Origin: a virus
Length of the DNA stretch: 64,000 nucleotides
Virus record (IMG/VR): IMGVR_UViG_3300042504_002519
Coordinates: 13,535 to 77,534 of that record
Strand: one strand, 5' to 3'
The notes beneath the pieces are model-generated. The model saw nothing but the letters and a program-made list of their open reading frames with translations, did not search any database and had not been told where the DNA came from. Numbering within the stretch: position 1 is the first letter of the stretch; every line of letters starts with the position of its first letter. Below are positions 7,908 to 64,000 of the stretch, one piece after another. A program made the position numbers and the translations under genes.

Positions 7908-8768
7908 ATGTTGACCACGCGACGGCTATCAGATGAAGTCCTCGAAATCCGGATCCGCTACACCGGGGAGGAAACCTATCACTTTTTGTTGGCCAGCGAC
8001 ATTCACCTGGATAACCCAAAGTGTGATCGCAAGTTATTCTTTTCTCACCTCGACAAAATGAAGGCTCTCGGTGGTAGGGCCTTATTTTTTGGTGATGTGC
8101 TATGCCTGATGCAGGGCAAGCGCGACAAGCGGGGCAGCAAGGCCAGCATTCGCCCCGAGCACCAGGGCGCCAACTACTTTGACTTGGTATTCAAGGAGTC
8201 CGCTGACATTCTGGCACCCTACGGCCAGGAGATCCTAATGATGGGCAACGGCAACCATGAGACAGCCATCATCAACCACCAGGAGATAGATCCCCTGGCT
8301 AATGTGGTACAGCAGCTGCGGGGCCGCCACGGGGCCATCACCGAGCACATGGGCTATCAGGGCTGGATCCGGTTTGTGTTTTACAAAGAACGGGGCCGAG
8401 GCGTCGAGGCTGTTCGGCGGTGCAACCTGTTCTTTCACCACGGGGCCTGGGGTGGTATTGTCACCAAGGGCACCATGGGCGGTGGCCGGTATGCCAGCAT
8501 TGCACCGGACGCGGATATTATCGTCAATGGCCACAATCACGAGCGCAGCATCGTTTCTCACCCTTGCTACCGGTTGATCGAAACCGGCAAGGTGCGGGTG
8601 ACGCCCCGATACCACGTGCAGTCTGGCACCTACAAGGAGGAGTTCGCTGGTAGCAACGGCTGGGCGGTGGAGCGGATCGTCATGCCGAAATCTCTAGGCG
8701 GCGTCTGGCTGAGGCTGACTCCCACTAAGTCCGCTGGCGTTGTGGTTTCACTGGAACCGGCTAGCTGA
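7908..8768 (+). CDS. Calcineurin-like metallophosphoesterase
   Basis: SDIH, GD, GNHE, HHG and GHNH motifs. Confidence 0.85.
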   Translation: MLTTRRLSDEVLEIRIRYTGEETYHFLLASDIHLDNPKCDRKLFFSHLDKMKALGGRALFFGDVLCLMQGKRDKRGSKASIRPEHQGANYFDLVFKESADILAPYGQEILMMGNGNHETAIINHQEIDPLANVVQQLRGRHGAITEHMGYQGWIRFVFYKERGRGVEAVRRCNLFFHHGAWGGIVTKGTMGGGRYASIAPDADIIVNGHNHERSIVSHPCYRLIETGKVRVTPRYHVQSGTYKEEFAGSNGWAVERIVMPKSLGGVWLRLTPTKSAGVVVSLEPAS

Positions 8769-8826: not shown

Positions 8827-9330
8827 ACCCACTTTGGTGGGAGTTTTTCAAGGTCTATCGTCAGTCACCCCTGCTACCGGCTATACTGGCCTGGATCCCA
8901 CTTCGGTGGGGGTTTTTCGCACTCAGTCGGTAGCCACTCGCGGCCAGCGCCAAAGCCTACCCCACCCCAGTGGGGGTTTATCTGGGAGTTTTTCGCCACC
9001 CCTGCTACCGGATGATCGAAACCACGCTGGCCTGGATCCCACCCTGGTGGGCGTTTTTCGCTCGATAAGGGATCCCCATTTTGGTGGGGGTGTATCCGAA
9101 GACTGGCAACGATATGGCCCCACTTCGGTGGGAGTGGTTCTTTCCCCGTGGTTAGCCCCGCGCTGGTGGGGGTGGCTCTCGCTTTGTGCCCGCCCCACCC
9201 TGGTGGGAGTTCGTCCCAACTCTGGTTGTACCCCATCCTGGTGGGGGTTTATCTTGACTATGGCGACTCCCCACTGCTGTGGGAGTGTGTCAATCTGCAG
9301 TTCGCCCCCCACTCTGGTGGGAGTAAAACC
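8827..9330 (+). CRISPR. Degenerate type I-E-like array A (11 repeats plus 1 partial)
   Basis: Hairpins at 8827, 8896, 8960, 9037, 9074, 9118, 9156, 9193, 9231, 9269, 9307; periods 69/64/77, then 37-44 nt. Confidence 0.75.
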
Positions 9331-37546: not shown

Positions 37547-37896
37547 TAGATCACCAGTCGATATTGGATAGCAGGCTGGGGCAGGCTAGCTAGCTGCCAG
37601 TTGATCGTCAGCAGGTAGCTGCCATCTTCATTAACCTGGCCCAGCACCTCGAAGGTAGCGTCTGTGATCTGTAGCTCCAGCGCTTGCCGGATCCGCTCCG
37701 CCACTACGCTAGGGTTAGGATGGGCCTCAAAGGCAAGGTTGCTGGTGCCATACTGGGGGCGCATGATACGCTCAAATGGCCTGGTTTCCAACACAGACAA
37801 GATGCTGTCTCGCACCAGATCAGCATCAGTCGCCGTCGCTAGGCCACCATCAACGATCCGTAACGGGTAGGCAAGGTCTCTGAGGATTGCAGTCAT
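37546..37896 (-). CDS. Baseplate wedge gp25/GPW
   Basis: LETRPFERIMRPQYG. Confidence 0.85.
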   Translation of the reverse strand: MTAILRDLAYPLRIVDGGLATATDADLVRDSILSVLETRPFERIMRPQYGTSNLAFEAHPNPSVVAERIRQALELQITDATFEVLGQVNEDGSYLLTINWQLASLPQPAIQYRLVI

Positions 37897-37943
37897 GGTT
37901 ATAGTGTGCCCTGGGCATCCTGGATCCAGCATTATGGTGACCC

Positions 37944-54205: not shown

Positions 54206-54380
54206 GGGTTTTTCCCCCACCCCGTGGGGCCTGTCAAAAGCTACCGATCCACCCCCACCACAGCGGGGCCATCAACCCTGTAAGAGCCACCCCCACCTAG
54301 TGGGGCACAGGAGCTAAACCGATCAACTCCCACCGTAGTGGGCCAAAGAGTCGCATAGATCCACCCCCACACCCGTGGGG
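54206..54380 (-). CRISPR. Array C: 5 hairpin repeats, 37-38-nt period
   Basis: Hairpins at 54215, 54253, 54291, 54328, 54365; handles GTGGATCT, GTTGATCG, GTGGCTCT, GTGGATCG. Confidence 0.65.
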
Positions 54381-54386
54381 CCTGGC

Positions 54387-55734
54387 CTACGCCGCGTCCT
54401 GATGCTCTTCCTCCTCCATTACCACCACCACGGGATCAAGCACCTGCCGGGCCAGGGCCTGCATGGCTGGCGGGGCGTCCGGCTGGGCTAGCACCAGGGC
54501 GGCTAGCTCCTTGGCCGCAGCCTGGGCGGCTTTGGTGCGGGCAATGCCCTTGCGAAAAATGGCTTTCGACTGTGCAGTTAGTTGCATGGTTCCTCCTCAT
54601 CAGTGCATCGCATCAATTCCCAATCAGGGCATCTGGTGTTGGACGGTGGCCCATCGGGGTGAATCGGGCAAGGCCGGAAAGGGTTCTCATAGCCGCCGTA
54701 AAAATGGCAGCAAATGCAAATGACCGGCGGCGGCACCCGTTGCCCAATGGCCGGGATCTCCTCAATCATGGCTACTTCCCTCCCAAGCTAAAGGGCGAGG
54801 TCCGCCGATCTTCAGCCAGTATCCGCAGGCTCAAGGCCAACGATACCCCAGGCTCTGACCTGGGCATCAGCGCGGCCATGGCTTGCAGGTTCTCCGGGCT
54901 GGCTTGCTCTAGCAGGTTGCCATCGGCTACCTCCACCAGCTTGCTTGTTTCTTCGGGGTTGGCGGTGCAATAGGCCGCCAGTTGTCGGGCAAGGTTCATG
55001 GCCGTGGCTCCTGATCAGGGCAGTTGTCATTGGTCGGTGGGCCGTAGGGCCGTACTGCACAGGGCAGGTAAAACCGGCTGCGGACGTTGTGGTACTGGCA
55101 GCCCAGGCAAACGGTTGGCCCCAGGGGTAGGCCCGGCACCGTGGCAGGCATGGCCAGGGCCCTGGCCGACTGGCGGTGGCGTTGCAGGCGACGCAATAGG
55201 CCGATCAAGCGGTTAACTTCATTCATGGAAGCTTCCCCCATGCTGACTTGACCTGATCAGCCAAGAAAGCTCGCTGACCTACTTCGAGCCGTTTCAGGCC
55301 TTTGCAGATCTCCTGCAGCTCCCTGAAGTTGGCCTCAGTAAAAGCCAGGCCATCGACCACCCGTTCAAAGGTGTTGACCTCAAGCTGCTTCTCAAGCGAC
55401 AACGAATCCATCACACCGCCACCTCCTGCAGGACCTGGCTAGGCCAGTAGGCTGGCACATAACCAGCTTGGGACTCGAACACCAGCCGCCCGGTATAGGG
55501 CAGTTCGTAAAACACCGTGTACTCCTGCAGCGGCCAGGGCCAGGGCTTGCCGGGGGGCACCAGCATATCGCCCCACTTGCGCCACAGCCAGACAGCGGCA
55601 GCAGCAGCCGGATCAGGCTCTTCGCTGAAGTCGGGGATCGTGCATTCAAAGGTTTCAGACATTCCAGGCTGGGTGGCAACTTGCACCCGCACGGGTAGGT
55701 AGGGTAGTGGCATGGTTAATCTCCACAAAAACAA
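54387..55734 (-). other. Run of six small coupled ORFs, two of them paralogous Cys/His (DUF6464-like) proteins
   Basis: CxxC...PC.(I/V).P.GPP...CPD in 54578-54769 and 54996-55241. Confidence 0.55.
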
Positions 55735-61538: not shown

Positions 61539-61643
61539 AGAAAGCTACAAATTATAACAACTGTCACAGCCTACCACCAGTCCCCGCAAAAGCGCCAAAT
61601 AAATGACACAAAAATGGCTAGGCTGTGCTATGGTGGATCCTAC

Positions 61644-61696
61644 GTCGAACATTGTCGAACGTCCTGTAATGTTCGACAATGTTCGACAATGTTCGA
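61644..61696. promoter_or_regulatory. Operator-like AATGTTCGAC repeats
   Basis: Two inverted and three direct tandem copies between divergent genes. Confidence 0.65.
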
Positions 61697-61727
61697 TGAG
61701 ACCGTCCCGAAAGGTTGATTTCTCGTT

Positions 61728-61985
61728 ATGGAGCATCCTGACAGCCAGATCGACGCCTTAATGTCGGAGCATCATTTCCGGTCATTAGTCAGTTCATTGG
61801 CTAGCCGCCAGGTTAGCCGTAGCCGACTGTATGAACTGCGTAAAGAATTGGCTTTGAAACATGAGGCTTTTACTCCGCAGTACGCCAGAGTACTGGCTTA
61901 CTATGCTCAGTTGCGAGGCTCCAGGCGAACAAAGGAATCAGCCCGCCAACTTACAATCCAATTTGCAAAGGACCACAACCTATGA
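61728..61985 (+). CDS. Hypothetical DNA-binding protein
   Basis: VSRSRLYELRKEL HTH-like stretch. Confidence 0.45.
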   Translation: MEHPDSQIDALMSEHHFRSLVSSLASRQVSRSRLYELRKELALKHEAFTPQYARVLAYYAQLRGSRRTKESARQLTIQFAKDHNL

Positions 61986-62407
61986 ACCTCTCCGATCAAC
62001 TCGAAAACGAACAGTCCCAGTCCACCGGCACCCCCGAGGGTGCTGCGCCGCTAGCCGCTGGCCATGAGCTGGCCATGGCTGTGGCTAACCAGATGCAGTC
62101 AGACGCCCTGGCCCTGGCCAGCCTGGCCGAGCAGTACAGCTCCACTAAGGAGCGCCTGGCTGATCAGCTTGCGCCTCTGCTTAAAGACGCCCTTAGCGGC
62201 CAAGGCTTGATGGGTGCTGTTATGGCCCGACTGGCCAATGTCCAGCCCATAACGATCAACACCACCATTGAACCTATCGACATCAGCAGCCTTTTGCCCA
62301 AGCGCACTGATCCTGGTTTAGTAGAAAAATTCCTGGCGTTTTCTGCCGGGATCCAGCCTCCTGCCCTACGCTTGCCCGCTGCCTACGGTGGCACTGACGA
62401 GGACTAG
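61982..62407 (+). CDS. Hypothetical protein
   Basis: Coupled ORF. Confidence 0.55.
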   Translation: MNLSDQLENEQSQSTGTPEGAAPLAAGHELAMAVANQMQSDALALASLAEQYSSTKERLADQLAPLLKDALSGQGLMGAVMARLANVQPITINTTIEPIDISSLLPKRTDPGLVEKFLAFSAGIQPPALRLPAAYGGTDED

Positions 62408-62414
62408 GGCCAAG

Positions 62415-62498
62415 CCCCACGCTAGTGGGGGTGGATCTGATGGCCTTTTTGCCGTTTTAGCCGCGTTCCCAAGACCCCACCATTGTGGGGGTGAGCGG
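62415..62498 (+). CRISPR. Repeat-spacer-repeat mini-array D (60-nt period)
   Basis: CCCCACGCTAGTGGGGGTGGATCT-spacer-CCCCACCATTGTGGGGGTGAGCGG. Confidence 0.65.
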
Positions 62499-62523
62499 TA
62501 CGACTCCGCTCCTTTTGCTAGCC

Positions 62524-62688
62524 ATGCACCATGACCACGCCGACGGCCTTCTCGCCATCTTAGCCACCGCCATTTTTGTGGTGGGGCTTTTTGTTGGCTT
62601 TAGCCTGGGTGCCGACCTGTGCCAGCAAAAAGCCAATGGCCCGCTGCTATGGCGGCAATTGTCCACCTTCATCCTTGGAGAACCTTGA
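62524..62688 (+). CDS. Small membrane protein
   Basis: MHHDHADGLLAILATAIFVVGLFVGFSLG. Confidence 0.5.
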   Translation: MHHDHADGLLAILATAIFVVGLFVGFSLGADLCQQKANGPLLWRQLSTFILGEP

Positions 62689-62690
62689 CA

Positions 62691-63098
62691 ATGGATCCAC
62701 TTACAAAGCCTAGATGCCAGGACATGGTATCGACTCCCGCCCCCCAGGACGCCAATTACCTGCTATGGGGCCCGCAAGAATACCCGCTGGAGGCTGGCCT
62801 CAGCCCCCGGGAATCCTGGTTTGAGTTAGATGCTGCGGGCGTCTGCGACATTCGTGGGTTGACCCAGCAGGGCCAGGCGATCCCCGTTGATCAGTCGCTG
62901 GTGACTACTGAACCTGTACCCGTGGCTGAGCCGGTTGCTGCGGTGGCCGAGCCCGCTGGCCCGCCCTGGCTGTTCCTGGCCGTGCTAGCTGTCCTGGTGG
63001 CCATGGTGGCTGGCAGTGTGACGATGGATCGCCGCCGCCGGGCCACCGATCCCACGCCCAAGCCCGAGAACCCTTACGCTGGAGGGCTGGATCAATGA
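62691..63098 (+). CDS. Membrane protein (start uncertain)
   Basis: C-terminal transmembrane helix followed by RRRR. Confidence 0.55.
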   Translation: MDPLTKPRCQDMVSTPAPQDANYLLWGPQEYPLEAGLSPRESWFELDAAGVCDIRGLTQQGQAIPVDQSLVTTEPVPVAEPVAAVAEPAGPPWLFLAVLAVLVAMVAGSVTMDRRRRATDPTPKPENPYAGGLDQ

Positions 63099-63586
63099 AT
63101 ATCGAAGAACTGATCCTACCCATTGGCGGCTTGGCTCTGGTGGGATTCACCCTGTTCTCGGGTGGCACCGAGCAGGGAGCTGCCATCCTTCAGGACGGTA
63201 AGGCCGTGAAGGAGCAACGCCGGGAAGCGGCCAAAGAACAGGTGCAAGCCCTGAGCACCCAAGACCACCTGAGCCAGATGGCTGACGTTGCCGCCCAGCG
63301 CTACCAGCAGGGCTGCACATTCCACTACGTCCTGGCTGACTTCCAGCGCCCCGAGACGTTGGCCACCGGGGCCAAGGACATCACCCCGCAGACTATTTCT
63401 GAGGGCATGATGCCGATCAACTGGCAGGGCCGTACCTACAGCCGTGGCCAGGTGGTATGCGATACCAGTGGCAACACTGGCGTGATCGACGGCGATGGCA
63501 GAGTTCAAGAGTACGCCTTTAACGGCAACCTGGACATCAGCCAGTACAACCAAGCATGGTTGGCCCGCCATGGAGGTGGCCGATGA
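63095..63586 (+). CDS. Membrane-anchored protein
   Basis: N-terminal transmembrane helix; RYQQGC...VVCD..GNTGVI. Confidence 0.6.
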   Translation: MNIEELILPIGGLALVGFTLFSGGTEQGAAILQDGKAVKEQRREAAKEQVQALSTQDHLSQMADVAAQRYQQGCTFHYVLADFQRPETLATGAKDITPQTISEGMMPINWQGRTYSRGQVVCDTSGNTGVIDGDGRVQEYAFNGNLDISQYNQAWLARHGGGR

Positions 63587-64000
63587 AGTACCTGTTTCTG
63601 GTGTTGGCTGGAGCGATCTTCGTTAACAGCCTCAAGGCCTATAACGCCGTTGGCCAGGCCACTTTTGGCGGTCGCCTGGGTGGCTTGATCGCCATCGTGG
63701 TATTCCTGCTTGTCCAGGGCTTCGAGCTGAAGCCCATTTTCCTCACCAACGGCGGCGCTGGCATTTTCCCGACGCTGAATAAGTTGGTGGGCGGCAAGGT
63801 GCCTAGCTTTGCCCTGGCGGATCCAGAGGAGCTGCTAGATGCCACCCTCTGGGCCACCCTCGGCTATGCGGTGGACTTTATCGCAGGCCTATTGGTGTGG
63901 CCGCCAGTATCCAGTTATAAGCTGGTGGCCATGGGTGGGGTGACATTTGCTGACATTCGCTGGGCTGCTGTTGGCAGCATCCTGGCCTGTGTCTTTGGGA
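63583..64000 (+). CDS. Polytopic membrane protein (runs off window end)
   Basis: ATGA overlap; MKYLFLVLAGAIFVNS...; several hydrophobic helices. Confidence 0.6.
   Translation, partial: MKYLFLVLAGAIFVNSLKAYNAVGQATFGGRLGGLIAIVVFLLVQGFELKPIFLTNGGAGIFPTLNKLVGGKVPSFALADPEELLDATLWATLGYAVDFIAGLLVWPPVSSYKLVAMGGVTFADIRWAAVGSILACVFG

Follow-up and report, generated by a model that had tools for sequence, protein, structure and literature searches.

A single-guide CRISPR-type unit in a lake-water tailed phage whose replaceable guide resembles the neighboring gene

A tailed phage found in lake-water metagenomes carries, just after a stop codon, a genuine single-guide CRISPR-type unit that belongs to the phage's own repeat family. 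Its guide opens with a diverged copy of the beginning of the next gene, from which it differs at five positions, and related phages carry other guides at the same place. The phage also encodes Cas6e, Cas7e, and Cas5e. With modest confidence, we read the unit as probably being a mini-array with a single guide and no leader, which Cas6e processes and which is directed at nearby alleles of related phages; a seed mismatch would spare the carrier's own allele. Unless noted otherwise, coordinates refer to the window, i.e., the whole stretch of 64,000 nucleotides that was analyzed, which makes up the last 64 kb of a 77,534-bp single IMG/VR virus record; the contig was recognized as that of a tailed phage by its tape measure and tail lysin.

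Anatomy of the unit and the repeat family of the phage

All elements of the locus lie on the plus strand. An upstream ORF of 141 codons without a known family (61982 to 62407) ends with a TAG stop codon at 62405 to 62407, 7 nt ahead of the first hairpin. Repeat 1 (62410 to 62438) consists of the 5' flank CCAAG, hairpin 1 (CCCCACGCTAGTGGGG at 62415 to 62430, i.e., CCCCAC-GCTA-GTGGGG), and the 8-nt handle GTGGATCT at 62431 to 62438. It is followed by the 28-nt guide (62439 to 62466), of which the first 24 nt are gene-like, and then by the terminal repeat 2 (62467 to 62498), which is composed of the 5' flank TCCCAAGA, hairpin 2 (CCCCACCATTGTGGGG at 62475 to 62490, i.e., CCCCAC-CATT-GTGGGG), and the degenerate handle GTGAGCGG. 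A first-pass annotation of the DNA had described a single-spacer mini-array with a unit of 60 nt, and this is indeed what is seen: the hairpins, at 62415 and 62475, are 60 nt apart from start to start, with CCAAG(A) directly 5' of each. The two repeats thus have their 5' flank and stem in common within a tailed-phage genome, as virus-borne mini-arrays do.

A terminator-like hairpin (GAGCGG-TACGACT-CCGCTC, 62493 to 62511) followed by CTTTTG closes the unit (62493 to 62517). The next gene (62524 to 62688, ATG at 62524) encodes a small membrane-type protein of 54 codons that is confined to this phage group; its N-terminal 16 codons vary and the remainder is conserved. The carrier's own copy of the guide-like segment corresponds to codons 7 to 14 (62542 to 62565) of this gene. 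Just past that segment, inside the gene, we observed a CCACC-N11-GGTGG element with a T-run (62564 to 62584), which has a terminator-like score and resembles hairpin 2. The gene cluster from 61982 on showed no known family. Rfam gave no match at gathering thresholds, and around the arrays and the focal site the matches were at chance level only.

The repeats belong to a family that is spread over the whole contig. Allowing one mismatch at most, the pattern CCCCAC-N4-GTGGGGG was counted 36 times in the window, where chance would give 0.22, and hairpin units number 47 on the contig, 36 in the IMG/VR relative G001, and 38 in the relative G002. In the true arrays of the contig, which have periods of 68 to 74 nt, the repeat is made up of a 13-nt 5' part, the hairpin, and GTTTCTC; the focal hairpin with its GT-NNN-TC handle equals the 3' part of these repeats. 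The handle GTGGATCT after hairpin 1 fits GT-NNN-TC, whereas GTGAGCGG after hairpin 2 departs from it. In the three records (G000, G001, and G002), a complete handle is found in 82 of the 83 units with another unit after them and in just 12 of the 38 that are terminal. A full handle on repeat 1 and a degenerate one on repeat 2 are therefore as expected if the handle matters only where a guide starts.

Searches against Pfam and NCBIfam identified Cas6e (PF08798, 1e-26), Cas7e (PF09344/TIGR01869, 2e-66), and Cas5e (TIGR01868, 4e-31) on the contig; Cas6e is also encoded by G001 and G002, the former with terminal repeats. Neither the Cas3 core (TIGR01587) nor Cas1 (PF01867) was found in G000, G001, or G002, records that are 69 to 79% complete according to CheckV, and the controls matched. 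No large-subunit family was detected; a divergent ORF of 366 amino acids had no Pfam or NCBIfam match. At the ends of the record, a multi-membrane-span ORF (63583 to 63999) runs off the contig and an FtsK/TraD-like ATPase ORF is open at its start (L001 1 to 1020), and the two may form one gene or operon across the record ends. Megablast of 20 kb against plasmids and phages returned no match.

Solitary repeat units could also act as RNA anti-CRISPR decoys, titrating the Cas proteins of the host. Repeat mimics have been described in phages, and the hairpins resemble the RNA anti-CRISPRs of Camara-Wilpert et al. (2023, PMC10651486) in being CRISPR repeat-like and scattered over the phage genome; many units here also have very short inserts. 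However, the focal unit differs from them in its full handle, phage-derived guide, and second repeat, and the cognate Cas6e, Cas7, and Cas5 are encoded by the phage itself. Besides, a host search by repeat pattern in GTDB representative genomes gave four scattered single matches and no array with the same repeat (and, for the hairpin-2 pattern, nothing), and decoys leave the phage-derived content of the cassette unexplained. We consider this explanation highly improbable.

Resemblance of the guide to the next gene

The first-pass annotation had aligned the spacer from 62439, which reads DGLFAVLA, with a segment of the next gene, and this alignment was confirmed: guide positions 62439 to 62462 match 62542 to 62565 at 19 of 24 positions, and the mismatches, at guide positions 3, 10, 12, 16, and 18, are all transitions. 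Scored by gapless scans, this is the best non-self match of the guide across the 77.5-kb contig, and it lies 103 nt off, an offset that puts guide and gene copy out of frame with each other. As a chance control, we took 24-mers from 59 other long guides of this phage and two relatives and scanned both strands of their own 73- to 78-kb genomes. Their best match was usually 16 to 18 of 24, and 19 of 24 was reached once; by itself the score is therefore in the upper tail and not decisive. Other alleles of the same cassette lengthen the homology, to 29 of 36 in the relative L006 and to codons 3 to 18 in P0023, the latter at the protein level. On these sequence comparisons, namely, the contig-wide top match, its distance of 103 nt, and the homology extended by other alleles, chance is excluded as the source of the resemblance. 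A diversity-generating retroelement was rejected as well: the mismatches are T/C and G/A, without an adenine bias.

The pattern recurs in the genome. In array C, guides 1 and 3 (8851 to 9023) both copy one segment (8544 to 8585) of the gene directly upstream; one of them matches its own genome at 25 of 27 positions and G002 at 26 of 27, and the other is a synonymously recoded copy with serine codon-family switches. Array A adjoins an integrase-like gene, and its penultimate guide (L001 8735, in contig coordinates upstream of the window) mirrors a site at L001 8913, 178 nt away and about 180 nt past the array end, with a counterpart in G001 (6445 versus 6624). That guide matches its own genome at 17 of 24 positions and G001 at 18 of 20 when every sixth position is excluded, and its mismatches fall at multiples of three. 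The focal locus had been put forward as a second, independent case of a guide sitting beside its target; the recurrence bears this out, but the independence is not complete, as all the cases come from the same phage and system.

Cassette alleles in relatives and lake populations

Relatives of the locus were collected as two IMG/VR loci through the neighboring protein and six metagenome contigs through a repeat-anchored pattern. Most of the nine related DNA loci were found through the repeat pattern, so the sample is biased towards array carriers. In all nine, both hairpins are retained: repeat 1 directly follows the stop codon, and some 33 nt separate repeat 2 from the small gene. Between the repeats sits an exchangeable cassette, of which we count at least eight alleles, four of them known as DNA and the others from read-through ORFs and from the lake run X2. 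As in virus mini-arrays, the position is thus the same and the spacers differ among related viruses (nine DNA loci).

Of the four DNA alleles, one is that of the window, another (L002) is an unrelated AT-rich palindrome, and the other two are 19 nt and 38 nt (L006) long. The 19-nt type is the commonest (L003 and L007 to L011) and occurs on several different flanking haplotypes; no target could be identified for it. The L006 cassette is another diverged copy of the same gene segment (GLLALLATAIFMA versus GLLAILATAIFVVG in the gene). In P0023, known at the protein level, the segment NDHADGLFAVLATAIFYGS stands between ...GGGGS and QDPTIVGV... and equals gene codons 3 to 18 with the DGLFAVLA of the window, about 55 nt. 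Further, unrelated cassettes are found in P0024/P0026 and in P0027. P0042, a protein from a 1,086-bp JGI contig, represents a variant of the small gene that is normal for 21 codons and then passes into the final part of the next gene, read in a different frame; this implies that most of two genes has been deleted there.

The exact allele of the window was present in two lake-metagenome runs at about one-tenth the depth of the flanking repeat, which indicates that many alleles coexist; the depth of repeat 2 in the lake runs was about equal to that of the flanks. In lake run X2, a different allele, rebuilt by script from difference tables, matches 61650 to 61685 of the window at 30 of 36 positions, the genome-wide top match in both G000 and G002. 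This site (plus strand) is an operator-like repeat region with inverted 17-nt arms and 2.9 copies of AATGTTCGAC, upstream of the first ORF of the operon. The repeats as a whole (61644 to 61696, the 17-nt inverted repeats being perfect) lie between a divergent 62-codon ORF and that first ORF, 790 nt upstream of the cassette. In RNA run X23, no contig spanned the cassette and one contig ended in hairpin 1, an end that does not count as evidence of processing.

Four alleles thus copy phage sequence within 800 nt, the next gene in three cases and the operator-like repeats in one, and these are top genome-wide matches. In all four, the homology starts at the first base after the handle, namely, at codon 7 (window), codon 8 (L006), codon 3 (P0023), and position 61650 (X2); in the alleles known as DNA, its other border is the TCCCAA(G)A flank of repeat 2. 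The distance between the hairpins is 27, 44, 48, or 53 nt in the DNA alleles and would be about 70 nt in P0023. Counting the 8-nt TCCCAA(G)A flank into repeat 2, two alleles have 32-nt guides; no 6-nt step in guide length was seen among the alleles.

These borders bear on the scenario that the first-pass annotation had named as refuting its own reading, namely, that a partial tandem duplication once copied the beginning of the next gene and the insert is its decaying remnant. The long P0023 allele, with the same DGLFAVLA as the window, and the similar 3' junctions of the window, L006, and P0023 alleles are in keeping with such an origin. The homology, however, starts at +1 every time at three different codons, one cassette allele derives from another site, 790 nt upstream, and further alleles are unrelated. 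Besides, the window and L006 cassettes are about 67% alike in their overlap (7 of 21 positions differ, by eye), whereas the flanks are invariant or nearly so. Since the cassette is swapped as a unit with precise borders and one allele comes from a different nearby site, a simple duplication remnant is not supported, and we regard decay of a duplication as very unlikely. An unequal crossover between hairpin 2 and the CCACC...GGTGG element inside the small gene was also considered and is contradicted by the observed 3' junctions.

With no leader at the unit and no Cas1 detected, new guides probably arrive by recombination and not via Cas1-Cas2. An allele of about 55 nt resembles a copied part of the gene more than a spacer and is too long for canonical spacer acquisition, which makes capture by recombination likely for P0023. 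A second indication comes from 54206 to 54426 (minus strand), where a string of hairpin units lies right after a stop codon, with counterparts at 62400 to 62720 in G001 and 37620 to 37900 in G002. Such strings comprise five to eight units with 3- to 4-nt loops and 13- to 19-nt inserts, and the number of units and the inserts vary among the three phages. One insert of the G001 string is a 16/19 paralogue of the 19-nt cassette at the focal locus, which, together with the P0023 allele, argues for recombination as the route of guide exchange.

Within the relatives, the stem and handle of repeat 1 are invariant and all four loop positions vary (GCTA, GCCA, and TACG). The 28 nt after hairpin 2, which lie outside all search patterns, have a pi of 0.038 against 0.12 to 0.14 in the flanking genes. 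The guide-like segment of the small gene has a pi of 0.14 against 0.069 in the rest of that gene; because 0.14 equals the local background of the flanking genes, there is no arms-race hotspot at the target segment.

Guides were compared with the gene alleles of their own and of other phages. The window guide matches its own allele at 19 of 24 positions with a seed mismatch at position 3, so that the longest run from +1 is 2 nt; this is also its highest raw identity among the known alleles. Against the L008 allele, it matches at 18 of 24 positions without a seed mismatch, and three mismatches remain when every sixth position is excluded. The L006 guide is worst against its own allele (24 of 36, seed mismatches at 3 and 7) and reaches 28 to 29 of 36 against alleles of other phages; at the protein level it equals LLALLA gene alleles in the protein collection.

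The partial match to the own copy could mean that a crRNA-like RNA, carried by the Cas3-less complex, tunes the phage's own operon by partial pairing, either with the operator or with the beginning of the next gene; it would then resemble CreA and similar crRNA-like regulators. Cas3 is indeed absent from the records, both kinds of mirrored site lie in the same operon and at positions where a block to transcription is most effective, and mini-arrays that regulate through partial matches have been described (bioRxiv 2023.03.03.530964; bioRxiv 2024.10.29.618823). The focal unit shares with these CreA and crlRNA mini-arrays the degenerate repeats and a guide that partly matches a site of the same locus. 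In contrast to them, with their contiguous PAM-proximal pairing and conserved promoter target, the focal guide has a broken seed against its own copy and varies between close relatives. Indeed, L002, a close relative with the same gene allele, has an unrelated cassette, which means that no regulatory pairing is conserved. Self-regulation therefore appears unlikely to us.

Searches for a perfect target gave no match. The spacer-type (DGLFAVLA) gene allele was absent from about 40 protein alleles, IMG/VR, and a representative library of 1.84 billion, and the exhaustive search of that library returned the same small protein family only. Neither the window guide nor a P0023-type cassette was matched in scans of IMG/VR, and the L002 guide was matched in its own record only; a protein search with the 48-amino-acid read-through ORF found nothing. 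The three bases before seven guide-like sites (GCC, GAC, GAA, CAC, GAG, TTC, and AAA; by eye) gave no PAM consensus. The first-pass annotation had suggested looking for array-less relatives that carry the spacer-type allele with a PAM; in our sample, which was mostly found by the repeat pattern and is biased accordingly, all relatives carry both repeats, and neither an empty site nor a DGLFAVLA allele nor a PAM came to light; these results speak against the homing hypothesis that the annotation had seen strengthened by this locus.

The missing perfect target would fit a more modest role, in which the hairpins serve only as Cas6e processing or stabilizing sites, where the operon mRNA is divided behind the stop codon, and the insert is passive filler from local recombination or duplication. 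Hairpin units stand right after a stop codon both here and at 54206 to 54426, no promoter-like site was found in 61600 to 62800, insert length is unconstrained (19 to about 55 nt, including a palindromic allele), and the target segment is not unusually diverse. Filler does not, however, account for the homology of four of the eight alleles to nearby phage sequence from +1 after the handle to the repeat-2 flank, for a handle conserved only where a guide follows, or for the exchange of whole cassettes between flanks that stay identical. We consider this explanation rather unlikely.

Possible mode of action and relation to known systems

In the reading that we favor, a mini-array aimed at related phages, the operon transcript would be cut by the phage Cas6e at the 3' base of every CCCCAC-N4-GTGGGG hairpin. 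The released crRNA of about 60 nt would comprise the 8-nt handle GUGGAUCU, the 28-nt guide, and hairpin 2, and would be loaded into the phage-encoded Cas7/Cas5 complex without Cas3. In related phages infecting the same cell, the guide would then recognize a rival version of the opening codons of the next gene, and these phages would be silenced, or cut by a host Cas3 or a phage nuclease. The carrier's own allele would escape through its five differences, the one at seed position 3 among them. Several results weigh against this reading: the missing perfect target and PAM consensus, the irregular hairpin distances, the 19-nt and palindromic alleles, the gene-like P0023 allele, the ordinary diversity of the target segment, the raw identity of the window guide, which is highest to its own allele, and the failure to detect a large subunit, Cas3, or Cas1. 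In a freely recombining phage population, such a guide (the poison) and the resistant allele (the antidote) would have to stay linked, and this linkage would be the best explanation of why guide and target lie so near each other; homing by recombinational repair is a further possibility. A more far-reaching proposal, which we put forward tentatively as possible rather than probable, is that the mini-array and the adjacent resistant allele work together as a poison-antidote or homing cassette guided by RNA and operated by a type I-E complex that the phage encodes and that lacks Cas3. Such a cassette would disable co-infecting relatives with the matching allele of a nearby site and would spread by recombination with its linked allele.

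Free-standing homing endonucleases of T-even phages, which act in intronless homing and localized marker exclusion, likewise pair a weapon with a resistant variant of its own target beside it, and the two are co-inherited. The likeness lies in the possible mode of action only, since the weapon here would be RNA guided and theirs is a protein nuclease.

The closest published systems are the mini-arrays of the viruses SPV1 and SPV2, which target neighboring genes of related viruses for a reason that was called unclear (Medvedeva et al. 2019, PMC6858448), and phage mini-arrays (Faure et al. 2019), which are leaderless according to the summaries in PMC6858448 and in PMC11656645, a review of the virus mini-array class. 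The focal unit agrees with both in having one or two spacers at an intergenic site and in a position that is constant in related viruses while the spacers differ. Their spacers are directed against related viruses, often against array-adjacent genes, with the carrier's own locus mutated, and the focal unit may be alike in this. It differs from them in several respects: the phage itself encodes Cas6e, Cas7e, and Cas5e, with no Cas3 or Cas1 detected; loop and handle set the two repeats apart; guides range loosely in length from 19 to about 55 nt; and no 100% target was found for the focal guide. Thus, the mini-array pattern as such has already been published (Medvedeva 2019; Faure 2019), and what is particular here is the phage-encoded Cas3-less effector, the non-identical repeats, the loose guide length, and the rich allele series.

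The locus is a compact natural test case: at one fixed site, lake populations carry eight or more guide alleles, half of which trace to sites less than 800 nt away, and the effector is encoded by the phage. It lends itself to asking whether linkage or true homing drives the pattern and how guides move without Cas1-Cas2. If the poison-antidote or homing reading is true, the coexisting guide alleles of one lake population would represent a live arms race, and the published closeness of viral mini-arrays to their targets would be explained.
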